This document shows positions 4,872-58,500 of a stretch of DNA of 64,000 nucleotides, one piece after another. How positions within the stretch are numbered: position 1 is the stretch's first letter; every line of letters starts with the position of its first letter. The notes beneath the pieces were generated by a model, which was given only the letters and a program-made list of their open reading frames with translations, did not search any database and had not been told where the DNA came from. The stretch spans positions 1 through 64,000 of the IMG/VR virus record IMGVR_UViG_3300035396_000367; one strand, written 5' to 3'. A program made the position numbers and the translations under genes. The DNA is from a virus.

Positions 4872-6289
4872 GTTATTTCAAACCCCCATTCCGCATACCA
4901 CCTTGCTCGACACTCCCATATCTTTGCAAGGTATTTTACTTTATCATCTATGTAATCATATACGGTAGGAGTCATCTTCCCTGACAACATCCTCCGGATA
5001 CGCCCGACACGTTGTTTTAAGTTACCCTCATTATTAGATGGGCACGTTAGATGTACAACATTCAGGCATGGAACATCCAACGCTTCATCCGCAAGCTTTG
5101 TAGCGAGCAGAACATCAAAATCACCTTCCCGACAAGTACTCAGAGTATCTTTTCGATACACCCTATCTTTCTTACCGTGAAGTACAAAAGCATTTACACC
5201 AAACTTTTCTGACAGTATCTTACCAAGCATCTCACAGTGTTCAACTCTTTCCGATAGCACGATCTGTTTCTTGCCCAGTTTATGCTCGTTTAAAATCCTC
5301 TGAAGTATCTGTGCGTTTCTGTATTTATCTGCAGCAATACTATTTAGCATCCTGCTCCAAGTTGCAACACCGGTGTAATCAAAAAAGTAGTCTGTTGCAA
5401 CACGTATAACTTTAGCTGAAGTTATTATACCAGCGTCTTCCAGTTCTGCATCACTTATAACAAAAATCTTACTTCCGATGTATTCGTACAGTAGGAAGTG
5501 CATCTTGTCTTTTCTGAACGGAGTTGCTGAAACACCGAACCTGTACTTTGCCGGTATCCTGTTTATACAAAACATAAAAGTTTCAGCAGGGGCTCTGTGG
5601 CACTCGTCGATTAGTAAGGTCCCGAAAGTTCGTTGAATCTCTGCCCATTGTTCAGGTGTTGCATTCGATAAGGATTGCACCAGTGCCACTGTAATGTCAC
5701 CTATCTCAAACCTACCATCCCCAATCACACCTATTGTTGCGTCTTCCAGAATAAACTTTTCTTTTATCTGTTCAATCCACTGCTGTTGCAAGTCTTTCAT
5801 ATGAACAAGAATTAGTGTCCGTTGCCGTCGAGCTGATGCTTCGTATATTGCTAGAACTGTTTTACCGGAACCACAAGGTGCTTCTATCACACCTTGTTCG
5901 AACTTTGATATAACCTCTCTCGCTTTAGCCTGATGAGGTCTTAACTTTAACCAAGGCTGTGGGTAGAACTTTATTGGCTCTGATGTTACTCTACGATCTA
6001 TGTATTCGATTGAGTACCCAAACTCAGCCAGAACAACCCTCGCGTAAGCACCTGTACCTCTTGGTATGCAAAAGTACGTGGGTGTTTCCGCATAGGATAA
6101 AACGTATTCCTGTATCCCTAATTCTCTAACCTTTTGCCTATCCCCACGAGCCTGCGCTAAAGCAAATTCAAACTTTGGATTCTTATGTGTTAAATCGTAT
6201 CTGAATTTCTCTTTAATCGGCTCTGGAATAGTTATAGGTAACCTGAGAACTGTATCAATTATTACCGGTATTTTCTGTTGCTGCTGCAT
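4868..6289 (-). CDS. Superfamily 2 DNA helicase (DExH; UvsW/A18/XPB-like)
   Basis: Q motif LRPHQ, Walker A APCGSGKT, DECH, motif III SATP, EALDVP, motif VI QRVGRIRR, VYDYID. Confidence 0.92.
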   Translation of the reverse strand: MQQQQKIPVIIDTVLRLPITIPEPIKEKFRYDLTHKNPKFEFALAQARGDRQKVRELGIQEYVLSYAETPTYFCIPRGTGAYARVVLAEFGYSIEYIDRRVTSEPIKFYPQPWLKLRPHQAKAREVISKFEQGVIEAPCGSGKTVLAIYEASARRQRTLILVHMKDLQQQWIEQIKEKFILEDATIGVIGDGRFEIGDITVALVQSLSNATPEQWAEIQRTFGTLLIDECHRAPAETFMFCINRIPAKYRFGVSATPFRKDKMHFLLYEYIGSKIFVISDAELEDAGIITSAKVIRVATDYFFDYTGVATWSRMLNSIAADKYRNAQILQRILNEHKLGKKQIVLSERVEHCEMLGKILSEKFGVNAFVLHGKKDRVYRKDTLSTCREGDFDVLLATKLADEALDVPCLNVVHLTCPSNNEGNLKQRVGRIRRMLSGKMTPTVYDYIDDKVKYLAKIWECRARWYAEWGFEIT

Positions 6290-6836
6290 TCTCTTTCTTT
6301 TTTACACCGATGGCAACATCACCGAAAAACTCTTGGATAAGTTCTTTTTCAGTGAACCCTGCAACCGCGATGTACTTCTCTTTGAAAGATGCCGCATCAT
6401 TTAAAAGTTTTGGATTTACGTAAAACTTGATATACCCAGGTACTGAAACTTTCAATTCTTTTTTGAATAGAAAGTTAGTAATCCTGGATATTAGTGTGTA
6501 CCGAGGTGACTGTACGGAATAACCGTACTTGTAGTCTTGATGCATGGAGGAGATCATCGCGTGCACCTTGTCCATACCCTTGGCTGTTTTTGCAATAACG
6601 GACAGCATGTCTAGTGCATTCACTCTCTGGCAGTATGGGCAAGCAAGAAACCCATCAGAGATAATTATCGTATTGGTTGTCCGCCCACATCTTTTACATT
6701 CGTGGACATTAACCTCTGAGTACTTTTTTACAATCTTTTTAGCAACCCGTTTATCTTCCGGGTCCGAAATAAGGTCGTTTATAGCAGTAGTAGTATCATT
6801 ACTAAACTGCTCCCTCTGCTCTTTAAGTTCTTTCAT
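6255..6836 (-). CDS. Hypothetical Zn-ribbon protein
   Basis: 193 aa with CKRC...CPYC; SD AAGGA; first gene of the replication block. Confidence 0.7.
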   Translation of the reverse strand: MKELKEQREQFSNDTTTAINDLISDPEDKRVAKKIVKKYSEVNVHECKRCGRTTNTIIISDGFLACPYCQRVNALDMLSVIAKTAKGMDKVHAMISSMHQDYKYGYSVQSPRYTLISRITNFLFKKELKVSVPGYIKFYVNPKLLNDAASFKEKYIAVAGFTEKELIQEFFGDVAIGVKKKENAAATENTGNN

Positions 6837-6838
6837 TA

Positions 6839-6885
6839 TTCGTTCCTTGTAAATATTTCATACCAATATAGTACGAAGGAACGAA
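6839..6885 (-). promoter_or_regulatory. RBS-sequestering RNA hairpin (10-bp perfect inverted repeat)
   Basis: TTCGTTCCTT (6839-6848) and AAGGAACGAA (6876-6885) are exact reverse complements. In the minus-strand mRNA the 3' arm contains the SD (AAGGA) of the gene starting at 6836. Confidence 0.6.
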
Positions 6886-6896
6886 GTTTACCCTAA
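6866..6896 (-). promoter_or_regulatory. Putative phage-specific promoter TTAGGG-N17-TACTAT at the start of the replication block
   Basis: Minus strand TTAGGGTAAACTTCGTTCCTTCGTACTATAT; same motif and spacing as 482-512. Confidence 0.6.
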
Positions 6897-6898
6897 AG

Positions 6899-7405
6899 TT
6901 AAGATTTAAGCAAACGAGAAACAATACTCGCGTCTATTTTGACACCGTCTTTTTCGCATATTTCTCTGAATACATTCATATCGAAGTTTGGACATGTCTT
7001 ACCTCCGGCAGTCGGAAGCTCGTAGTGACCCAAAAGCTTAACACCGGGAACAATATTACGGAATAAACGTACCAGATTGTATGCTGTCTGGAACTGAGCA
7101 ATGGAGAACTTGTTTACACCTATCAGGCAGAAACCTAGTGAATTTTCGTTGAACCCCTTAGCGTGCGCACCAACTTCCTCTTTCTCAATAATAGTATCAA
7201 GGTCTAACCCCCTACCGATCTCGAACAAACCGTCATCCGCTGAAGCGTATGCTTTTGTTGACTTTCTGAAACCGTTTAGGATAACACCGTTGTACCCTAT
7301 ATCTTTCCAACCGTTACCCTGTACGTGCCACTCTTTTACCAGAGCTGCATCGCCAAAACCGCTGTCGCTACAATGAAAAACTAATGCCTCTATTCTCTTA
7401 TCCAT
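6899..7405 (-). CDS. Endolysin, N-acetylmuramoyl-L-alanine amidase (Amidase_2, T7 lysozyme-like)
   Basis: VFHCS (Zn ligand His), WHVQGNGWKDIGYN, VGAHAKGFNENSLGFCLIG, GHYE...KTCPNF (His/Cys Zn ligands). No separate cell-wall-binding domain. SD GGAGG. Confidence 0.92.
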   Translation of the reverse strand: MDKRIEALVFHCSDSGFGDAALVKEWHVQGNGWKDIGYNGVILNGFRKSTKAYASADDGLFEIGRGLDLDTIIEKEEVGAHAKGFNENSLGFCLIGVNKFSIAQFQTAYNLVRLFRNIVPGVKLLGHYELPTAGGKTCPNFDMNVFREICEKDGVKIDASIVSRLLKS

Positions 7406-7427
7406 TTTATTCCTCCGATTCCTTTTT

Positions 7428-8255
7428 TTAATTTTGTGAGTTCGCGTAAATTCCGATAACTACGGCAACAAGTACCATAGCGATAGGGACCCAAATATGT
7501 GTTTTATTTTTGAAAAAGCGTTTCGCTTTGTAGGTGAATAACCGGAACTTCTCTTTGAATGTAAATTTCTTTGCAGTCTTTTTATCAACTGAAATCCAGG
7601 CTTCCCGCTTTGCAGCAAGATCTTCGAAATCTTCCCATGACATTTCAACGTACCCGTCTTCATCCCATTTCTCATTCCAACTGTTTCTGATTAGCAACCC
7701 ATGTTCGGAAGAAGCAGCTGCACACACCAAATGGTAACCACGTAAAGTACCATTCTCAGGCTTCCATATCTGTCCGTCACTTCCGTAGATAGGAATAGAT
7801 AGTGTTACAGTTGTTTTAGCGTTCATCGCGTCGATTACATCCTGCCGTGTATATGCTCTGTAATACGACTCAATCTTTAGAAGTTCAGCCATCTTTTTCT
7901 TCTCTGCATCCCACGTAAAGTTTGACATATATGGGCACATGGATTCTGGCAAACAACCTATAGTTCTTTGAATTTCGTAAGCATTCCTTGGATACATCCC
8001 GTCGGAGTCTTGGTTAACCCTATTGATGTATGTAAGCCACGGTGCGATGTAATCTTTCAATTTCGAGTCGAAAGCTTCCTGAACCTCTCTCTGCGTGGCT
8101 GTAGCGAACGCTACACAGGATCCTAGCATACCTTGGTCCCTAACTGGCCGTAGGTATTGTCTGAAGTCAATATCCCAGTTTGATGCTTTTGGAAAAATAC
8201 CAGCAGCTTTCCAGTCTCTTCTGTCTTCCGGTGATAAAAGTAAATTAAAATTCAT
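7428..8255 (-). CDS. Papain-like cysteine peptidase (family C1) with C-terminal membrane anchor
   Basis: IDFRQYLRPVRDQGMLGSCVAFA (oxyanion Q, catalytic C), GYHLV (H), IRNSWNEKWDEDGY (N). A basic stretch precedes a hydrophobic tail IWVPIAMVLVAVVIGIYA. Start placed at ATG 8255 because of the SD TAAGGAG; the ORF track starts at 8309. Confidence 0.88.
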   Translation of the reverse strand: MNFNLLLSPEDRRDWKAAGIFPKASNWDIDFRQYLRPVRDQGMLGSCVAFATATQREVQEAFDSKLKDYIAPWLTYINRVNQDSDGMYPRNAYEIQRTIGCLPESMCPYMSNFTWDAEKKKMAELLKIESYYRAYTRQDVIDAMNAKTTVTLSIPIYGSDGQIWKPENGTLRGYHLVCAAASSEHGLLIRNSWNEKWDEDGYVEMSWEDFEDLAAKREAWISVDKKTAKKFTFKEKFRLFTYKAKRFFKNKTHIWVPIAMVLVAVVIGIYANSQN

Positions 8256-8280
8256 TATAAACTCCTTACGTGTTAATTTA

Positions 8281-8309
8281 AGTATACTATGGCTGTACCT
8301 TATTCTCAA
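8281..8309 (-). promoter_or_regulatory. Sigma70-like promoter for the peptidase and amidase genes
   Basis: TTGAGA (8304-8309), 17-nt spacer, TATACT (8281-8286), about 25 nt upstream of ATG 8255. Confidence 0.55.
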
Positions 8310-8317
8310 CTGATACT

Positions 8318-9790
8318 TTATGCTCCGTAAATGTGTAAACTCACTCCGAGACTTCTCGCTTTTTCCAAAGCCTCATCTGCGTACTTTAGTAGGAATGAGT
8401 ATGTATTTCCGTGAAGTGTGTGTATTGAAACACCTACTGACATACGCAACGACTCCTCTAAACCAAACGGCTTTACTACTGTATTAAACTGAGCCTGCAT
8501 TTTAGCAAATTTGTAGTTTATCTCATCAACAGTTTGAAGCCTATCAACACACACGATAAATTCGTTACCGGCAAGACGACCCACACAGTCTGTTGGATCA
8601 AAAAAACCTTTTAAGAAATCCCCAATTAGTCTGAAAAATCTATCACCGTAGTCGTAACCAAATTTATCATTGATAAGTTTTAAATTATCAATGTGGACAA
8701 CACCGACAATGAATAACTCACCTAGACGAACTTTTTTCTTAATGAAACTTTCAAAGTACTTACGTGTAAACGTGTTGCTTACAGGATCTAAGTCTTTCTT
8801 TTCCAGGTTAGCTTTTATTTTAACATCCTCTGTTATATCTTGAGAGGTCATAAGTATATTTATTACTACCCCATCTGCATTTAGAATAGGTGTGTGCGTT
8901 CTCTCATACATAGATGTTTCGTCGTTTGCAAATGTTATTTTCTCAACCATAGTATCAGTTTCTTTTTTCGCTATTGCACGCTCAATTGAAGCTGTACGTA
9001 ACTTTGCTATCTCCATATCCAGACGCTGGTCCCGGCAGTAATCGAAGTCATTCTTGTCCTGCATATAATTCATAAGTTCTTTACCAGGGAAACAGTGTAT
9101 GTTTGCTTTCGTGTACTTGAAAGTATTTACGTCCAACACAGCTAGTTGATACGGACTGTACGTAAAAATGCTACTCATTAGGTTCTCGCTATAAACAACT
9201 TTCGCGTTGTACTCACTCAGCTGCAGTGCCTGCCTCTCATTCTCAGTAACAGTCTTATACATACTGTCAGATATCGAAATCCTGATACGAAGAAGAATAC
9301 CGGTTAGAAAAAGGAATACAGAAAGTATTATTGCGAATGGCAATGCTTTTAGTATTTCAAAATCATACTTTACGTAAAAACCAAATGCTATGGCAAGCAT
9401 ACTGTATATTGAGTATGTTATGTAAACACGCATTGCGGATAGGGAGAACGTACAGTATAGAACTGAGATACTTATTAAAAATATACTTGCTTCACTCGGA
9501 TAGTCCATCGCTACAACAGTTGAAAACGATAACCAAGTTGAAATAATGAACATTAGTACAACGTTAACATGCCCTGCAATATTAACCCCTACTGATTTAA
9601 AACGAAGTATCAAAAAATAAATAACTACAAAAATACTGATAACTACCATTTTAACCGGAATAAGATCTATGTTCGCACCTGTTAAGAAAAGAAAAATGTT
9701 TGGAACAATAGTTAGTATCAGAAACATTAGAATCGACGTTTTATGATACGCCGAGTAGAAACCTGTGTGGAAAGACTCTTTTAAATTCAT
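8318..9790 (-). CDS. Membrane sensor with about 6 TM helices, a PAS/PAC domain and a degenerate GGDEF domain (AGNEF)
   Basis: Six hydrophobic segments; PAC-like motif THTPILNADGVVINILMTSQDITE; GGDEF-domain signature DPVSNTFTRKYF...HIDNLKLINDKFGYDYGD...GRLAGNEF...SVGVS...LLKYADEAL. Start probably ATG 9790 (ATGA overlap with the upstream small ORF); the ORF track starts at 9799. Confidence 0.9.
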   Translation of the reverse strand: MNLKESFHTGFYSAYHKTSILMFLILTIVPNIFLFLTGANIDLIPVKMVVISIFVVIYFLILRFKSVGVNIAGHVNVVLMFIISTWLSFSTVVAMDYPSEASIFLISISVLYCTFSLSAMRVYITYSIYSMLAIAFGFYVKYDFEILKALPFAIILSVFLFLTGILLRIRISISDSMYKTVTENERQALQLSEYNAKVVYSENLMSSIFTYSPYQLAVLDVNTFKYTKANIHCFPGKELMNYMQDKNDFDYCRDQRLDMEIAKLRTASIERAIAKKETDTMVEKITFANDETSMYERTHTPILNADGVVINILMTSQDITEDVKIKANLEKKDLDPVSNTFTRKYFESFIKKKVRLGELFIVGVVHIDNLKLINDKFGYDYGDRFFRLIGDFLKGFFDPTDCVGRLAGNEFIVCVDRLQTVDEINYKFAKMQAQFNTVVKPFGLEESLRMSVGVSIHTLHGNTYSFLLKYADEALEKARSLGVSLHIYGA

Positions 9791-9945
9791 TTTCCGCAAT
9801 ACAATGTTTCTATAATTTTATCCACAATATAAAAAACTGGAAACAATATTCTGAATACTATAATCATCCTAATTCTTCGCCAATATATTGCTACAACAAC
9901 GCTAAGTGAAACGTAAATCAAAAATATTAAAAATGCTGTTCTCAC
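9787..9945 (-). CDS. Unannotated 52-aa hydrophobic membrane protein
   Basis: GTG at 9945 overlaps the receiver-gene stop (GTGA), and its TGA overlaps the GGDEF gene ATG (ATGA). Translation MRTAFLIFLIYVSLSVVVAIYWRRIRMIIVFRILFPVFYIVDKIIETLYCGK*. Confidence 0.7.
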   Translation of the reverse strand: MRTAFLIFLIYVSLSVVVAIYWRRIRMIIVFRILFPVFYIVDKIIETLYCGK

Positions 9946-10394
9946 GCTAACGCCCTTCGGATCTGCTTGGTTATTGATGCTTCTATGAATTTAACTATCG
10001 AGTTAGCTTTATCACCTTTGGAGATGTACCTTACTTTACTCTTTAAAGAATATTCCCCAATCACCATGTTGTCATCCGTCATACCTGTAAATATTGTAAT
10101 GTCCCCACCGCCTGAGAATATTGCAGTCTCTGATGAACGACTACCTGACTCACTTAGTTTGTCAATCACTGCACTCCCTTTTCCATCCGGCAAGTTCCAG
10201 TCAATTATACATACGTCGTACTTTTCCTTGCGGCGTTGTAGGAATGAATTGACATCCTCGAATCTGTCGATTGAGTATTCAATAGAGTCTTTATACGTAA
10301 CCATTCTCTCATCTATCAGCATCTCAAGTACATCGAGAATAGATAGCGAGTCATCGACAAGTAAAAAATGTAATGTTTTTTTAATTTTTTTCAT
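9942..10394 (-). CDS. Single-domain response regulator (REC, CheY-like)
   Basis: FLLVDD acidic pocket, YDVCIIDWNLPDGKG (phosphoacceptor Asp), IFTG (conserved Thr), YISKG (conserved Lys); no output domain. Confidence 0.88.
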   Translation of the reverse strand: MKKIKKTLHFLLVDDSLSILDVLEMLIDERMVTYKDSIEYSIDRFEDVNSFLQRRKEKYDVCIIDWNLPDGKGSAVIDKLSESGSRSSETAIFSGGGDITIFTGMTDDNMVIGEYSLKSKVRYISKGDKANSIVKFIEASITKQIRRALA

Positions 10395-11046
10395 TTTGTT
10401 GAGTTTGATACCAGTAGTCTGTGAGTCGAACTAACACTAATTCAATCTTGATCTTCTTCTGCTCGTAATCAAGCGTAGAGTAAAGAATGTCAAGTATTGT
10501 ATCAAGATACTTGAATTTCTTATCTTCGAAACAGGCAAGCTTTCTTTCAGTTGATATTATTTTTCCAGTAGTGTTAGGGAGTTGAAAAAAGTGTCTATCA
10601 ACGTTGCTTATAACTGTGTGGTAAATTTCACGCAAGTCGTGTGCCGTTCCGGTAGGACTGGTATTATTTTTTACTGCATCAAGAAATTTAAAAGTTAACT
10701 CTCGCTGCACGTACATTAGTGTTAGCTTTATTGCAACATCCACTTGGCTATTTGTAAGATAACTCTCTTGCTTCTCATCTAAAATCTTTAGCATTGTGAT
10801 AATGTTTAGAGTTGTATCGTCGATGTTACTGACGTGGTGACTAACAAGTTCCTTTATCTCAACTATGTGGCTAACGTACTTCTCCATAGCCGGGTCTTTT
10901 ATTACACCTACTGATTTAAGTATGCTAATAACAAGTGGTACGAGCTCTCGCATCATTGCAATAACTACAACAGTTACGACAACAAAAACTACTAATGAAG
11001 GGTTTGTGTACCCCAATTGTTCTAATACTTTAAATAGATCACTCAT
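10381..11046 (-). CDS. Single-pass membrane protein with a large soluble domain (holin/antiholin-like candidate)
   Basis: 221 aa. One N-terminal TM (SLVVFVVVTVVVIAMM), then a helical soluble region. ATGA overlap upstream and 14-nt overlap with the REC gene. Confidence 0.6.
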   Translation of the reverse strand: MSDLFKVLEQLGYTNPSLVVFVVVTVVVIAMMRELVPLVISILKSVGVIKDPAMEKYVSHIVEIKELVSHHVSNIDDTTLNIITMLKILDEKQESYLTNSQVDVAIKLTLMYVQRELTFKFLDAVKNNTSPTGTAHDLREIYHTVISNVDRHFFQLPNTTGKIISTERKLACFEDKKFKYLDTILDILYSTLDYEQKKIKIELVLVRLTDYWYQTQQNEKN

Positions 11047-11441
11047 TGTTTCTTTTTCCTCATCTTAGTTTTTTGATCAACGTCTTTATCTTCGAACCCT
11101 CTTTTGTCTAAGAATGAGTCAAATCTATCGAAAAGATTAAATCCTATAAGCACATAAAGTACAATCACCAATGCACTATATTGACTAACCTGAAAAATAA
11201 GCACAGCAGGAGACGAAACGTCAGTCCTGTAAGCAGACAAATACAAATATGAAAAACAGATTGCTGATATTGTCGCTATCGTATTTTTCACTTTAAAACT
11301 CTTTACTATCTCAAGCATCCTTCCAGGTACGTATACGAATGCCATCGTTATAATAAATATACCGAAACACACAGCAAGGTAACTCAGAACTCCCTCTGAT
11401 GATAAAAACTGAACTATTAAACCTTCACTTGTCTTTTCCAT
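11043..11441 (-). CDS. Holin-like membrane protein (3 TM)
   Basis: 132 aa, three hydrophobic segments and a highly charged C-terminus (DKRGFEDKDVDQKTKMRKKKQ). This is class I holin-like architecture, in a cluster ending with the endolysin. Confidence 0.55.
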   Translation of the reverse strand: MEKTSEGLIVQFLSSEGVLSYLAVCFGIFIITMAFVYVPGRMLEIVKSFKVKNTIATISAICFSYLYLSAYRTDVSSPAVLIFQVSQYSALVIVLYVLIGFNLFDRFDSFLDKRGFEDKDVDQKTKMRKKKQ

Positions 11442-11442
11442 T

Positions 11443-11748
11443 TCACGCGCCCTCGCTATTCTTCTTCTCAGTAACCAGCCCTATGTTCGAGTATGCTGCA
11501 GGCCCGCCCCACAGTATCGAAATAAGTGGAGCCCATACTAGAATACCACTAACTATAATGTCTATTTTAAAAACAGACACTACCATAAGGTACACAGTCA
11601 GAATATACGCCATAATTCGCATACCATTTACGATCTTCCACTTACGGGATGCTTTCCTGTTAAGCTGTTCGAACTCAAAATCCTCTACCGGAGTCTTTTC
11701 TTCGTTTGCGTGAATCTCAACTATCCGCTTTTCCCGATCTGTAAGCAT
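11443..11748 (-). CDS. Holin-like membrane protein (2 TM)
   Basis: Two TM segments (IMAYILTVYLMVVSVF; IIVSGILVWAPLISILWGG) after SRKW. Start placed at ATG 11748 (SD AGGAG); the ORF track starts at TTG 11793. Confidence 0.55.
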   Translation of the reverse strand: MLTDREKRIVEIHANEEKTPVEDFEFEQLNRKASRKWKIVNGMRIMAYILTVYLMVVSVFKIDIIVSGILVWAPLISILWGGPAAYSNIGLVTEKKNSEGA

Positions 11749-11764
11749 TTTGAACTCCTGTAGT

Positions 11765-11793
11765 ATTTTACTACAATTAACCGTTTTTTTCAA
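11765..11793 (-). promoter_or_regulatory. Sigma70-like promoter for the holin/REC/GGDEF operon
   Basis: TTGAAA (11788-11793), 17-nt spacer, TAAAAT (11765-11770), immediately upstream of the SD of the gene starting at 11748. Confidence 0.55.
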
Positions 11794-11818
11794 TACAATA
11801 GCAATCTATTTACCATTT

Positions 11819-14698
11819 TTATTCTACAAACCTATCACTAAAATCAGTTTTATCGTAATCCCATATCTTTAGATACTCCACGGTTGTATTCCCACCGTAA
11901 TTTCCACTTCCAGTCCACCCTGCAAATGTTAGATTAAAATCTAAAGCAGATATACCTGTTAGGTTAATTGAAGCATTTGAATCAGCGTAAATAACAACAC
12001 CATCTCTATAATACCTTACTTTGTCTGTAGTGTTACCTATCCCACTACTGGAGTAGACAAAAGCAAAATGGTATAGTGTATTAGCTACAAAAGGATTACC
12101 ATAGTGTGCCCCTTCAGAGAATTCGTATACTAAGTCTCCTGCCGTATTCCTATGCATTTTATTTAGAACACCTGTTTCACCCGTATTGGCATTGAATGAA
12201 ACTTCCCAACCCCTAGCGTAATCATAAATGTCCCCTGGAGTACCTATTATAAAAATTGCCCTATTGCTTGTACCATCCCATTTCATCCAAAATTCAATAG
12301 TAAATTCAGAGCAGTTATTTCCAACTAAGCTTGTAAAATTAGTGTATTCTACCCTGTGTGTTGTTAAGTTCGGCTTGTAACCATTCCCGAATTTACAAGG
12401 TGAGGAGCCTAGTGAAACGTCACCATAGCTTACATATCCTTTCCCCACCTCACTCTGTGGCTTACTAACGTCCATTTTATTAAATAACACTAGCCCTGGG
12501 TACGCAATACCTGCATCCAATTCTGTGTTAGCATAATTCCATATTTTGAAACTACCTATGTAACCGTTAAAAGGTGATGTATTACTTGCAGAAATTCCTA
12601 TAAAAAATCTATGCGTAAGTATTGTGTTTGTTATATTATTTACTGAAGATGCAATCTGCGTTGCTCCGTTGTATACGCGTATTCTATCTGAACCTCCCGC
12701 TATCCCATTATAATTAACCACTACCTTTAGTGTACTGAAAGCAGATGTACTTAGAGAAATTGCTGTCGATATTTCATTAGCACCCCATTTAAAGTATAGT
12801 GTAGAACCATTTATGTACATGTAATAGTTTGCATTCACAGTTCCATTTTGTGTAATCCCAAATAGATAAGCAGCTGCCGCAGTAGGAAATACTACCGGTT
12901 TTATCTTCATCTGTATTGAAAACGCATTCCCTAAACACACATTCGGATATGTTACGTAGTTACCCACAGTGTTAATAAGTGCTGACACTCCATCAAAAGT
13001 TGGGCTACCAGTAACCATCCCGGTAGGTCCAACAGTAGGATTGTTAACTTCTAGTGCACTTCCCATACCGCTATCCAAAAGTAGACCACCTGTAGGCTGT
13101 ACGTATCCGTCGGTAGATGTGCACGAGCTACTCGCTATTAAATTTTGACTAGATAAAGTCGCAGCCGTAAGATACTTTAGCATATCCAGCTTCAAGTAAC
13201 CTGCGGATGTTAACACAACTGCTCTGTTTATTCGAAACGAATACTGTATGCTAGGCGTATCCTCTTCAAAGACTAACTGCAAAGAAGAAATGCTTTTTCC
13301 AACAGCACCTGCTGTGAATGGTATTCTAAATCTATACCAAGTGTTTTTTGCTGTTGGAGAAAGTGTTATAGCATGAAGAGGTTGCGTAGTGGATTGAACG
13401 ACCATAGACAAGTTCCTTGCAACTGTTCCGTCAGAAAATGTGATGTCTACGCCCCCCTGGTATACTTGAACAGAGTCTGTTAGTGACATTAAACTCACTT
13501 CCAATACATCCCCTGTTGCGACTGTTAGTGCCATCCCGCTTGCGATTGTGTAGTACGCGTAGTGATTACCCGCAGAAGCATTATTTGTGGCTGTTAACTG
13601 TATATACCTGTTGAACGATGGTCCGCCATATTTTAACTGCATCGCTGTAGGATCGTTCTGTTCAAGTAAAACTGCTGCTACCGCTGCGTTGCTCTGATCT
13701 TCGTTCATTGCTATGAAATTGCTATACCACCCACCAAAAGATTGATAGTTAGAACTGTAGGAACTTGAGTTTGGTTGAGCACCAAGAGTCTGTGACCCGC
13801 CAATTTTGTCCGTCCTAGTCCACGTATTCGTAAAATAGTCTGTGTATGTTTGACCATTTCCGGTATAGTATACTGTAAGTATAGCTGTTTTCAATGGGCT
13901 ACCTGTTCCTGGTATCCCGTCCTTATTCCAAGAAAAAGTTACCTTATACGAACCTAGAGCTGTCGGTCCGTACGGTGCGTTTGTTCGTAAAAAAGCTGCA
14001 CCTCCGTTTGCACTTGTCCACCCTGTGAACAACCCAGCACCTGTTATACCAGTTCTATACCCTAGCCCAGCATACGGACCATACGTTAAATTTGGTGTAG
14101 AAATGTACCAATACCCTTTGTAACCATCCGGAGCGAAGTCGAAACCGTAGTTCCCATTCGTGAAATGATTATCCGCAGTAGCACATGTATTTGACAAATG
14201 CCAAAGCCAGTTGGTCGCTAGTTGGTTTGGTGTTACCCAGAAACTTATCGTACCTTTTGCAAGTGACATTTTTCTGTTCATTAGCATGTGAAATATATGG
14301 TTAGAACCTGATCCACCGCTGCTGTCAGGGTATATTCGCAATGAGTCGTATGTTTTTGGAAGTGGGCTGTCCGGCCTCTCTATAGCTGTAACAACGTCTA
14401 GCGACATATCGTCATTCGAGTTTGAACCAAGCGCACCAGCATAATATGTTTTAATAATACTATTAGGATCACCTACAGTCGGCGATGCAAATGATTGGGA
14501 CCGAGGGAAATGAGTTAACTCGTTCCCTTTGCAATAAAAAACTACTTCAGGTGGCAACGAAACTTCAGATACTTTTTCTATACCGTTCTCTGTTTGTTTC
14601 CACTCCTCTTTAACTTTCGTTAAAGATACTTCATCCTGTACCCACTTTTCACGTACATCTTGAATACTGCTTATACCTCGAACAACCGTCTTACCCAT
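11819..14698 (-). CDS. Virion fibre/adhesin with about 3 LamG (concanavalin A-like) domains
   Basis: 959 aa, rich in G/S/T/N. Repeated LamG signatures GTISFWVTP, FSIQMKIKP...FNGYIGSFKIWN and FTIEFWMKW...YHFAFVY...YLKIWD. Confidence 0.75.
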   Translation of the reverse strand: MGKTVVRGISSIQDVREKWVQDEVSLTKVKEEWKQTENGIEKVSEVSLPPEVVFYCKGNELTHFPRSQSFASPTVGDPNSIIKTYYAGALGSNSNDDMSLDVVTAIERPDSPLPKTYDSLRIYPDSSGGSGSNHIFHMLMNRKMSLAKGTISFWVTPNQLATNWLWHLSNTCATADNHFTNGNYGFDFAPDGYKGYWYISTPNLTYGPYAGLGYRTGITGAGLFTGWTSANGGAAFLRTNAPYGPTALGSYKVTFSWNKDGIPGTGSPLKTAILTVYYTGNGQTYTDYFTNTWTRTDKIGGSQTLGAQPNSSSYSSNYQSFGGWYSNFIAMNEDQSNAAVAAVLLEQNDPTAMQLKYGGPSFNRYIQLTATNNASAGNHYAYYTIASGMALTVATGDVLEVSLMSLTDSVQVYQGGVDITFSDGTVARNLSMVVQSTTQPLHAITLSPTAKNTWYRFRIPFTAGAVGKSISSLQLVFEEDTPSIQYSFRINRAVVLTSAGYLKLDMLKYLTAATLSSQNLIASSSCTSTDGYVQPTGGLLLDSGMGSALEVNNPTVGPTGMVTGSPTFDGVSALINTVGNYVTYPNVCLGNAFSIQMKIKPVVFPTAAAAYLFGITQNGTVNANYYMYINGSTLYFKWGANEISTAISLSTSAFSTLKVVVNYNGIAGGSDRIRVYNGATQIASSVNNITNTILTHRFFIGISASNTSPFNGYIGSFKIWNYANTELDAGIAYPGLVLFNKMDVSKPQSEVGKGYVSYGDVSLGSSPCKFGNGYKPNLTTHRVEYTNFTSLVGNNCSEFTIEFWMKWDGTSNRAIFIIGTPGDIYDYARGWEVSFNANTGETGVLNKMHRNTAGDLVYEFSEGAHYGNPFVANTLYHFAFVYSSSGIGNTTDKVRYYRDGVVIYADSNASINLTGISALDFNLTFAGWTGSGNYGGNTTVEYLKIWDYDKTDFSDRFVE

Positions 14699-55500: not shown

Positions 55501-58500
55501 TTACACGACCAATTGTAGAACCACCCTTACGTGTAACTTCTTGCATAGCAGCAACCATACCATTCAACCGATTAAACTCTAAACCGGATATCTTTGCTAA
55601 AGCACCAACTTGCTTAACTGCTTCACCTAAATCTTTTGCAGTAACCGCGTTCTTATTAGCAACATTATTCCAAGAATCAAGAATTGCCATAGACTCTTTT
55701 AAACTAAAACTGTACTGTCGTGTTGCCGCAGTAAGGTTATCCATCGCCTCTACTTGTGTCATGTCAGTTACGTTTGCAGCAACAGCTGTTGTCTTTGTTA
55801 GCGATGTCACCTCTGCTTGACCAAGACCCTGCCTAGAAAACTCTATTGCAGTGCCCATAACATCATCTATCGGACGAGCCATTTCCTGAGCAATACCGTA
55901 TAGATCATTTTTAATTTTACCAAAGTCAGTGGATGCTTCGCTCATTACCTGTCGTAGTGTATTTACCTGCTCTTCAACAGAAAGCATTGCACCTACTGCC
56001 TGACGAGCCTGCGCTTGAATACCATAGAATAAGTATGAACCAGCACCAAATTTAGCAATCCTACCCATAACAGTTTCGAGCTGTTTAGCTAAACCACCAC
56101 GGAGTGCATTAGTACTCTCCTCAATAGATGTAGTGACCCTACCTTGAGAATCAATAACCATTTTTAATAATCCAATCTCTCTACCACGTATGTCTAGAAT
56201 TTTTTCTGTCTGGATTATTTCCTTACTTAGAACATCAAACCCCTGACCTTTAAGATCAATAGCAACAGCAGCAGTTGTCTTTGCTCTTTTGTTAAAGTCT
56301 TGCATTTGCTCTTTTACACGACTTGTTTCTATTTCACGTATTCGTGTCGGATCACCCGAGTTTATAGCAGAGTCATACTCAAATGCATTTTTAGAACTAG
56401 CTATACTAGCTTTAAGTCCATCATACTTTGCAAAAGCATTAAATGCCTGGGACTGTTGCTCTGGTGTCTTAGCAACCTTACCCATTGCTGTAAGTGATGT
56501 AACATATTCTTTTTGAACCATTGCAAGTTCTTTAAGTGACTGAAGTCTCTCCTCTAAAGGAACATTCGCGTCACGAGTTGTCTTAGCTATTTGAGATACG
56601 GAGGATGCATGTTTACCTACCTCAGCAAAAAGCTGTTCGAATGTACGTAGCCCTTTAGGAGTTGCATCCATTCCGGATATTTTAATAAGCATCTTTTCGA
56701 GTTTCTCTAACTCAAGCTCTGCACTTTTTATTGCTGCCACACCAAATGTTTTGTCTGCACCCTGTATGTTTCTTAGTTTATCTAACTCTTCCCTGTACTC
56801 GGAGATACCGCGTTTAACTGATGAGATAGCCTCTTTTTTTGATTTATCTGTTGTAGCACTTTCAACAGCTATTCCAATAATCTTTTTGTTAGTAGCGGCC
56901 AGGTACGATAACTCTCTAGCGTATAGTCTTACTTCGGATGCTTGATCTTTCCACAAAGAGTTTTTCTTTGTTGTAGCCATATTCTGTAATGACTCTTTTG
57001 CTTTATCGCTTGATTCTATTAGTTCCTTTAGAGAACGTTCAATGTCTTTTATTTTTAACTCTGTACCCATGTCAAGCGCACCGTCACCGGCTATCTTTTG
57101 CTTTAAGGCTTGTATCGTTTCTAGCCTACCCTTCAGTGTTGTACCTGCTTCAGCACCTTCTTTCGGTTCTAAATAATTTGATAAAGCACTACTACTGGAT
57201 GACCTTTCTATAATATTTTTAGAAGAATCATTTGCACGTCTCGCTTCTCTTTTTAAATATTTTGAAAGTTTATCTGCGTCACCTATTTCTGACAGTAAAG
57301 ACTCATAGCTCTCACCTGTAACTTTCTTCCCAGGTGTTTTAACACCTGATGCTGTCTCAGCAGCTGCCGCATTTAATGTTGGAACACCGGAACTTGCTTT
57401 TGATAGTCTTGTTTTTATATCACAAACATCCTGGTCTATTTGCTCAAGTGTGCGTTTAAGCATAGAACCACTTTCTGTTATTGCTTTAACAAGCTTATCA
57501 CAGCACTCCCCAAAGCCTTTAGCTTCTTCTGAACCAGTTGCATACTTTTTATCTTCAGTTGCCTGGTTAATAACTTTAGCTTTTTCTGACTCCATTGCTG
57601 CACTTTTCTCAAGTAACTCGTCATCAGATATACTTCTACCTTTAAATGAAGACATCTTAGAATATGCTGTTTTAGCGTCAAACGTATCCCCGAACTCCAA
57701 GCCTTTGGAAGCCAAAAACTCATCCAAGAATTTACCTTTTACAGATGAGTCACCGTTTTTAGATGAAGCTACTTCAGCTTCAAATCTACTTTTCACTTCG
57801 GGTTTATTCATATGTTCTTGGAAACCAAGGTCCTTTACAATCGACATTGAAGTTCCTGCAAGCTGAACCTCTCTTTCTGCTTCAGCTATAGGCTTATCTA
57901 CTTTAACAATTGTAGCTACACGATTTACTAACTCCCTTAAACTTGTTAAAAACGTATTGTCTGCAGCACTCATCGTACCTTTTGAGGAAGCTTCTCTAAT
58001 CGCTGTCATACGTGATTCTAACTGTGCAGATAATTCTAGTTCTGTCCCTTTATTATTCTCACCAAGAAGACCTTCCGTATTTAAGCCCTTTACAAACTCC
58101 TTACGAGGTATGTGTACAATATCTGTATCTATACCTGTTATCTTCCCTAAAGATTTACCCCAGTCTGACTCGGGTATGCTTCTCTGGTATAATGCCTGTT
58201 GTGTAGCAGACTTCTCCGCAACTTCTGTTGGTGAAAGTGTTGATGTTTTGTAATCTCTTACCTTTACTCTGTAGCCATCTCCGTCCTTAACAGCTCGTGC
58301 CTCATCCACAGTACCTAGAGAAGCACCATCACTACTTCTATCCAGTTTTTGCTCTACCGCAACGTACCCAGCTTCTATCTCTTTAGCAAAGTCTATATGA
58401 GAAAGATTTTCCAACGATTTGTGCACATTCTTACCTATCGCAGCAGACTCTGATTCCTTACCTGAAAAGTCACGTCCCATCACAGCACCAAACAATGATG

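Follow-up and report, generated by a model that had tools for sequence, protein, structure and literature searches.

Five consecutive genes in the first 64 kilobases (kb) of IMG/VR virus record IMGVR_UViG_3300035396_000367 (the window; the whole record, G000, is 91.7 kb, with a CheckV completeness of 49%) are shown, at the level of sequence, to form a real, selected and self-contained unit. They encode m132, a three-transmembrane (TM) protein with a charged tail, m221, a TM-anchored helical protein, REC, a stand-alone receiver, m52, a micro-protein of 52 amino acids (aa), and 6TM-PAS-GGDEF, a sensor with six TM helices and a degenerate cyclase site. The best explanation as a whole, which we hold tentatively and with rather less than even confidence, is that of a signalling cassette, probably mobile between phages, that may tune the opening of the membrane via m132.

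Conservation of the five-gene block

The second large phage, which is otherwise unrelated, is represented by IMG/VR contig UViG_3300035396_000446 (G001; 99 kb, 33% guanine plus cytosine (GC), 47% complete), which was reached in IMG/VR by the alignments of m221 and of the GGDEF protein only. The block of m132, m221, REC, m52 and 6TM-PAS-GGDEF, which occupies window positions 8318-11441, is present in G001 with the same gene order and the same overlaps at 25-56% identity (table 1). The similarity between m132 and its counterpart is weak but collinear, and a C-terminal FLDxxGxxDK motif is common to both. In the window, m132 and m221 overlap by ATGA (11043-11046), m221 and REC by 14 nucleotides (nt), REC and m52 by GTGA (9942-9945) and m52 and the GGDEF gene by ATGA (9787-9790); the gene that precedes the block, m116, is separated from m132 by a gap of 1 nt. 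The homologue of m52 has the same place in G001 and the same overlaps with the REC stop and the GGDEF start. It was therefore possible to confirm the 52-aa membrane protein, previously noted as unannotated, as a real gene, with 45% identity in G001 (E 1.6e-12).

When all proteins of G001 (99 kb) were compared by BLASTP with all proteins of the 91.7-kb record, only m221, REC, m52, the GGDEF protein and a displaced homologue of m116 were recovered. The block is also the lowest-GC stretch in both phage records, with 35.8% compared with a genome mean of 40.2% in G000 (z -3.1) and 27.7% compared with 33.2% in G001 (L004 9033-12160; z -2.6), and its immediate neighbours have normal GC. The genes of m116 (43.8%), of the C1 protease (41.7%) and of the amidase lie at or above the genome mean. 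Because m132-m221-REC-m52-GGDEF is the only block shared by the two phages and has the lowest GC in both, these five genes are taken as the conserved unit, which probably moves between phages as a whole. The initial annotation had named the occurrence of REC and GGDEF genes at unrelated loci of related phages as evidence against a functional connection; in the one other phage they are not scattered, but stay with m221, m52 and the m132-like gene. The synteny suggested for checking in IMG/VR, from holin through REC and GGDEF to protease and amidase, is kept in part: the order m132-like/m221/REC/m52/GGDEF is found in G001, whereas no homologue of the protease or of the amidase is found in its 99 kb.

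Fibre genes precede the cassette in the late string of either phage, and its expression probably belongs with that of the late genes, next after the genes of the tail fibres. In G001 fibre-like genes stand on one side of it, and on the other side a gene for an 826-aa protein is followed by a head-tail adaptor gene; a 74-aa two-TM gene immediately precedes the cassette. Two genes upstream of the G001 cassette, a 204-aa protein (L003 8767-9381) carries a GKSLG motif resembling the GxSxG nucleophile elbow; it has no family or PDB match and might be an esterase-type enzyme.

Table 1. Positions of the genes and promoter-like sites of the region in the window, and of the counterparts of the conserved genes in G001
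Feature	Position	Strand	Length	Description
Promoter-like TTGAAA-17-TAAAAT	11765..11793	-		in the 70-nt gap after the LamG fibre gene; 10/12 consensus positions; followed by AGGAG and ATG 11748
m116	11443..11748	-	101 aa	charged N-terminal 45 aa and two TM helices; outside the conserved block
m132	11043..11441	-		three TM, charged C-terminal tail; first gene of the conserved block
m221	10381..11046	-		N-terminal TM helix and all-helical domain of ~170 aa
REC	9942..10394	-	150 aa	stand-alone CheY-like receiver
m52	9787..9945	-	52 aa	membrane micro-protein; one TM helix and a second hydrophobic/amphipathic helix
6TM-PAS-GGDEF	8318..9790	-	490 aa	membrane sensor, degenerate cyclase site
Promoter-like TTGAGA-17-TATACT	8281..8309	-		in the 62-nt gap between the GGDEF and C1 protease genes
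C1 cysteine protease, papain family	7428..8255	-	275 aa	C-terminal TM anchor; outside the block
N-acetylmuramoyl-L-alanine amidase, T7-lysozyme type	6899..7405	-	168 aa	no signal sequence; outside the block
G001 three-TM charged-tail protein	L003 9615-10001		128 aa	25% identity to m132, pairwise E 3e-5
G001 m221 homologue			216 aa	56% identity
G001 receiver			147 aa	51% identity
G001 micro-protein			56 aa	45% identity to m52, E 1.6e-12
G001 6TM-PAS-GGDEF			494 aa	51% identity, full-length

A conserved GGDEF protein with a degenerate cyclase site

The GGDEF domain of the sensor is matched well above the cut-off by PF00990 (E 4.9e-22, 78.8 bits, cut-off 23.8) and matches 41 PDB chains at E<=1e-3, and the preceding PAS domain is borderline by Pfam (PAS_4, 23.0 bits with a cut-off of 23.1). 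In the AlphaFold2 model, six N-terminal helices, whose prediction is of low confidence, are followed by a long linker helix, a PAS-like fold of five strands and a GGDEF fold, the latter with a predicted local distance difference test score (pLDDT) of 75-92. The first metal-binding Asp, equivalent to D327 of PleD, is His in this phage (HID for DxD) and Arg in G001 (RVN), where the second Asp of DxD is also lost. The GG(D/E)EF signature reads AGNEF here and TGNEF in G001, the acidic third residue being gone, and the RxxD I-site reads DPTD and AEND, respectively. Among the nearest bacterial homologues DxD and GG(D/E)EF are kept in all eight and RxxD in seven of the eight. The guanine-contacting residues N374 and D383 are retained in the GGDEF protein of the phage.

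Since the metal-binding acids, the GG(D/E)EF signature and the I-site are lost in both phages, synthesis of cyclic di-GMP (c-di-GMP) by this protein is very unlikely, and the same verdict falls on the earlier suggestion that it alters the c-di-GMP or biofilm state of the host. Considering that the GNEF motif is common to both phages and that about 50% identity extends along the whole protein, the sequences indicate that catalysis was lost long ago and that the protein has since been selected for something else.

An intact receiver and no kinase in either record

The receiver scores slightly below the Pfam cut-off (PF00072, E 1e-6, 29.3 bits, cut-off 30.2), which is due to an insertion of about 18 aa, and the region around D65 is matched by response regulators in PDB. 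All the switch residues are present, namely the acidic pair D14 and D15, the phospho-acceptor D65, T103, Y123 and K126, and they are invariant across the three homologues of alignment A4 (85% and 51% identity). Judged by these residues, REC would be a working CheY-type switch. Each of the two records contains only one REC. No HATPase_c domain (PF02518) was found at E<=0.1 in G000 (91.7 kb) or in G001 (99 kb) by a search whose control matched in 14 of 14 genomes, so that the lack of a histidine kinase, first pointed out for the window, extends to the whole 91.7-kb record (49% complete). A cognate kinase encoded with the receiver, as expected of a two-component system, is thus found in neither record.

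Membrane proteins of the region

Hydropathy gives m132 three TM segments with an inferred N-out/C-in orientation and a highly charged C-terminal tail, DKRGFEDKDVDQKTKMRKKKQ, which is the architecture of a class I holin as far as topology is concerned. Holins of classes I and II are small proteins with two to three TM helices and a charged cytoplasmic C-terminus; three hydrophobic segments were counted in m132 and two TM helices in m116. Neither protein could be assigned to a family of any kind, for m132 in Pfam, PHROG, NCBIfam and the Atlas.

A full HMMER search with m221 (221 aa) against 1.84 billion representatives gave nine hits, eight of which are proteins of 206-223 aa, and no fused forms. 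The ninth match (P0106, 2,894 aa), a SEA/WAP repeat protein of eukaryotes, was set aside as spurious. By these matches m221 founds a small new family of about nine clusters, with the conserved motifs KQxSYLTNEQV and DRxFFQLPNTxGK. Its AlphaFold2 model (pLDDT 74) is all-helical behind the N-terminal TM helix, and comparison of the model by Foldseek and VIA-align returned generic helical bundles only, with Z below 8. The helical domain is probably cytoplasmic according to the positive-inside rule. A regular-expression scan of the minus strand at 4-16 kb found no open reading frame (ORF) with a spanin-type lipobox, and for this reason m221 is unlikely to be the i-spanin of a two-component pair. 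The NCBIfam search of the module proteins gave nothing beyond the Pfam and PHROG results.

In G001 the counterpart of m116 (35% identity, E 2e-16) is encoded 46 kb away from the block, in a neighbourhood of replication-type genes. It is a protein of 100 aa (L006 17626-17928, equal to G001 57626-57928) with a conserved VEDFxxExLxxKASRKWxIV motif and two TM helices; its gene adjoins an SF2 helicase gene amid replication and nucleotide-metabolism genes, and the two phages thus have this small membrane protein in common without its being tied to the cassette. As a possible conserved anchor, the SF2 helicases close to m116 in both phages were considered and rejected, as only generic motifs are in common.

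Possible output of the cassette and its relation to lysis

In the mechanism that we propose, a host kinase or acetyl phosphate would supply the phosphoryl group of the receiver, and the dead GGDEF domain would act by binding guanosine triphosphate (GTP) or a partner protein rather than by making c-di-GMP. The micro-protein m52 could be a small membrane modulator of the 6TM sensor. The output would be control over an event at the membrane that m132, the holin-like member of the cassette, carries out, and this control could tune when the membrane opens for the adjacent signal-less amidase. Three observations make control of membrane permeabilisation by m132 the single most likely output, although we put it forward with reserve, as a possibility and not as a probability: first, the holin-shaped m132 is a fixed member of the cassette; second, the cassette is found at the end of the late string in both phages; third, it abuts a signal-less endolysin in this phage. 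The small two-TM gene directly ahead of the G001 cassette also speaks for a role in lysis.

The enzymes that adjoin the cassette in the window are well recognised. The amidase matches phrog_822 (E 3e-21) and PDB entry 1lba (E 1.2e-10) and lies just under the Pfam cut-off for Amidase_2 (25.5 bits, cut-off 26); all five zinc ligands and catalytic residues of the T7 enzyme (H17, Y46, H122, K128, C130) are aligned. It lacks an export signal, and no second peptidoglycan hydrolase was recognised in the 91.7 kb. The protease matches PF00112 (E 1.5e-12, 48.5 bits, cut-off 20.7) and phrog_16701, and its Gln/Cys/His/Asn catalytic set is aligned with papain (QG..GSC, H and NSW are kept).

Several points weigh against the proposed explanation as a whole. 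Neither an amidase homologue nor a C1 homologue is found in the 99 kb of G001, which also lacks matches to Amidase_2, Amidase_3, Phage_lysozyme and SLT, and the downstream neighbours of the G001 cassette are structural genes such as the head-tail adaptor. In the window itself a gap that holds a further promoter-like site lies between the cassette and the protease-amidase pair, and the pair differs from the cassette in GC. No family of holins was matched by m116 or m132 in Pfam, PHROG or NCBIfam at permissive thresholds, and in the ESM Atlas both gave scores <0.9 and no holin family; the designation of the two as holin-like is therefore upheld by size, topology and charged tail, but not by family. 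The low GC of the block may come partly from its content of hydrophobic residues rather than from transfer. Finally, the genome comparison comprises two genomes (G000 and G001) and fragments of one close relative, and the negative results for a kinase and, in G001, for an endolysin cover records that are 47-49% complete, so that either gene may lie in the missing halves.

The amidase gene is located 3.6 kb downstream of m132, and adjacency to an endolysin is not conserved across the two genomes examined. The statement of the initial annotation that the chain is wired into a lysis cassette is true of this phage only, as no amidase or C1 homologue is found in the 99 kb of G001 and the m116 homologue there is 46 kb away from the block. 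Likewise, the chain is indeed followed here by the C1 protease and the amidase, but both are outside the conserved block, with a different GC and a promoter-like site of their own. The link to lysis is weak, and the placement of the cassette beside the protease-amidase pair is, on the present comparison, specific to this phage lineage. A more detailed version of the proposal, a lysis clock of a new type, is unlikely as a whole: a membrane complex of m221, m52 and the 6TM-PAS pseudo-cyclase would restrain m132 or let it go, the state of the complex being set by receiver phosphorylation through host kinases or acetyl phosphate and by the binding of GTP or a ligand, and the whole device would be mobile between unrelated large phages. 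With such a clock the phage would gauge the energy or the envelope of its host cell ahead of membrane opening.

Alternative explanations

The main rival in our ranking is that the cassette interferes with host signalling and not with lysis. The receiver would drain or intercept the phosphoryl groups of a host two-component pathway, for example one of envelope stress or motility, the pseudo-GGDEF would titrate GTP or bind host GGDEF/EAL proteins or other partners, and the membrane proteins would merely localise the complex. The intact receiver in the company of no phage kinase in either record fits this explanation, as does a GGDEF domain that is without catalysis yet conserved, with its guanine-contact residues kept; the G001 cassette, moreover, adjoins no lysis enzyme. 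Phage proteins that act on host diguanylate cyclases and two-component systems are documented (PMC8085984, PMC10714779). However, the explanation does not account for the three-TM charged-tail protein and the TM-anchored protein of a new family as fixed members, genes of a late operon, behind those of the fibres, would have little time in which to redirect the host, and no host target is known. It is considered somewhat unlikely.

In third place stands a role in phage-phage or host-defence conflict, in which the cassette would be a membrane sensor that serves superinfection exclusion, senses a second infection or blunts a nucleotide-signalling defence, the dead GGDEF domain binding the signalling nucleotide. 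A mobile-looking, compositionally distinct accessory cassette common to unrelated phages is typical of conflict genes, and a membrane-sensor architecture joined with a putatively nucleotide-binding pseudo-enzyme would suit such a role. We nevertheless regard it as improbable: no module protein matched a PADLOC defence-system family, the c-di-GMP-binding I-site is absent, and conflict genes are more often early than late. Only one PADLOC match was listed, that of a restriction-enzyme model to the GGDEF protein (E 0.0058, 13.6 bits), with no stretch passing alone; it was read as a chance match.

That the phage GGDEF protein is an active diguanylate cyclase, through which the c-di-GMP of the host would rise late in infection and its biofilm state would change, can practically be set aside, for in spite of the strong GGDEF profile match and of the GGDEF genes known from other phages, such as Bacillus phage SP-15, Acinetobacter phage MD-2021a and several PHROG families, both phage copies are without the metal-binding Asp and the acidic third residue that all eight of the nearest bacterial homologues keep.

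Gene starts, promoter-like sites and genome context

The eight genes of the region, their domains and the five junctions between them had been described exactly in the initial annotation, as a re-check established; two starts were corrected and the rest of the gene layout stands. The start of m116 is most likely ATG 11748, with AGGAG 7 nt upstream and a product of 101 aa, and not TTG 11793. The C1 protease most likely starts at ATG 8255, preceded by AAGGAG (275 aa), and it is because of this shift that a 62-nt gap follows the GGDEF stop.

A single sigma70-like promoter had been assigned to the chain. The site exists as a sequence, but promoter-like matches are not enriched in the region over shuffles (24 found, 27.4 expected), and similar promoter-like sites occur in other intergenic gaps of this phage; a promoter before m116 is plausible. 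As the 62-nt gap holds a promoter-like site of its own, the protease-amidase pair may be a separate unit. Elsewhere in G000, sigma70-like elements (TTGACT ... TGTGATAAAAT) are found in short gaps before the portal and minor-head genes (74551-74595 and 76372-76422). They resemble the sites ahead of m116 and of the C1 protease gene, which suggests that the late region makes use of host-type promoters.

The DNA originates from a microbial-mat metagenome. Nearly all genes of the window are on the minus strand, and no tRNA genes are found in it. Giant virion proteins of 6,718, 2,798, 1,462 and 3,210 aa are encoded inside the window, and the terminase, portal and capsid genes are located beyond it in the same 91.7-kb record. 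The string of giant minus-strand ORFs (window 16938-63715) consists of 6,718 (open at the window edge), 2,798, 1,462, 711 and 3,210 aa; the 711-aa and 684-aa genes have no PHROGs match. The gene order runs from the giant virion genes through the LamG fibre gene (11819-14698) and the cluster under study to the genes of an SF2 helicase and a DnaB-type helicase. Between the amidase and SF2 helicase genes, a 193-aa protein with a CxxC...CxxC zinc-ribbon-like motif and no family match is encoded at 6255-6836, and its gene overlaps the SF2 helicase gene by 35 nt.

A single contig of a Logan assembly made independently from the same run contains positions 5500-13000, and the gene arrangement is therefore not an assembly chimera. 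The cluster has no DNA or protein relatives among the INPHARED phages; only distant GGDEF-domain matches and distant portal matches to Bacillus phages were seen. By this comparison the phage is one without a close cultured relative. Scans of IMG/VR with the GGDEF protein, the C1 protease, the major capsid protein, P0100, P0105 and P0103 gave no match, and a scan of genome contigs with the GGDEF alignment gave generic bacterial GGDEF proteins only. Proteins of the window are also carried by a 167-kb contig and the m116 homologue of G001 by a 191-kb contig; for this reason both phages are probably about 170-200 kb in size and the analysed records roughly halves.

The close relative is known from a receiver with 85% identity and an m116 with 90% identity, each on an 8.6-kb JGI contig, which is probably one and the same; scans of JGI metagenomes gave no match for the 85% identical receiver. 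Three other contigs of the same mat sample (15.6, 19.0 and 17.3 kb) match the GGDEF, m52 and REC genes over short stretches with 80% identity or more, at window positions 8815-9483, 9780-9821 and 10380-10400, and one of the contigs keeps the spacing (583 compared with 589 nt). This suggests that more relatives of the cassette live in the same mat community.

Comparison with known systems and significance

The nearest analogues of the cassette are, by function, T4 lysis inhibition and LytSR with LrgAB/CidAB and, by domains, PleD/WspR and GdpP/YybT; none of them is homologous. In T4 lysis inhibition the holin T is governed by the antiholins RI, which is periplasmic and senses a second infection, and RIII, which is cytoplasmic. 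Common to that system and the cassette are small TM partner proteins that answer a signal and time permeabilisation, and genes that are near or tied to an endolysin without an export signal. On the other hand, there is no sequence or family kinship, T4 has no receiver, PAS or GGDEF domain, and the link to lysis is drawn here from topology and from adjacency in one phage. The two-component system LytSR of Firmicutes controls the holin-like proteins LrgAB/CidAB and governs the access of murein hydrolases. It resembles the cassette in that a multi-TM sensor and a receiver are coupled to holin- or antiholin-like membrane proteins, but LytS is a true histidine kinase and LytR binds DNA, whereas the cassette has neither a kinase nor a DNA-binding output and its sensor ends in a dead GGDEF domain. 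Neither 5TMR-LYT nor another known sensor family was detected in this sensor by a Pfam-type profile scan.

In PleD and WspR a receiver is likewise paired with GGDEF, and both are included among the PDB and NCBIfam matches of the phage GGDEF domain. Their receivers are, however, fused to soluble, active GGDEF domains with an RxxD I-site, whereas in the phage the receiver is separate, the GGDEF domain is membrane-bound behind 6TM-PAS and the sites are lost. Small membrane proteins that modulate a sensor are represented by MgrB and SafA, which act on PhoQ. The micro-protein m52 is similar to these in its size of about 50 aa, its one TM helix and its gene directly upstream of, and translationally coupled to, that of a multi-TM sensor; there is no homology between them and m52, and a partnership of m52 with the sensor is putative.

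Degenerate GGDEF domains that serve as sensors or scaffolds are found in Caulobacter PdeA, whose GGDEF domain senses GTP, and in YybT/GdpP, CsrD, LapD and PelD. YybT/GdpP (for YybT, PMC7824862) has the composition TM-PAS-degenerate GGDEF. As in the phage protein, the fold was selected after the loss of the cyclase, and GdpP has the same order of TM, PAS and degenerate GGDEF. These proteins differ in having either an additional output domain (EAL or DHH) or an RxxD site at which c-di-GMP is bound, and the phage protein has neither.

The timing of holins is classically that of an intrinsic protein clock, and few external inputs to it are known, T4 lysis inhibition being the main one. In the literature we found no description of a phage REC/GGDEF lysis module or of a comparable receiver/GGDEF cassette; GGDEF genes in phages, taken by themselves, are already known (PMC5977210). 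If the proposed explanation is true, a receiver/sensor cassette fixed to holin-like proteins would give large phages a means of sensing the physiological state of the host. The cassette is also a clean natural case of a GGDEF pseudo-enzyme selected without an attached output domain, and with m221 and m52 it brings in a new protein family and a conserved micro-protein of the membrane. Even if the output is not lysis, the finding shows that signalling cassettes with no kinase in the records analysed are common to unrelated phages, and it offers a small and directly testable set of genes.

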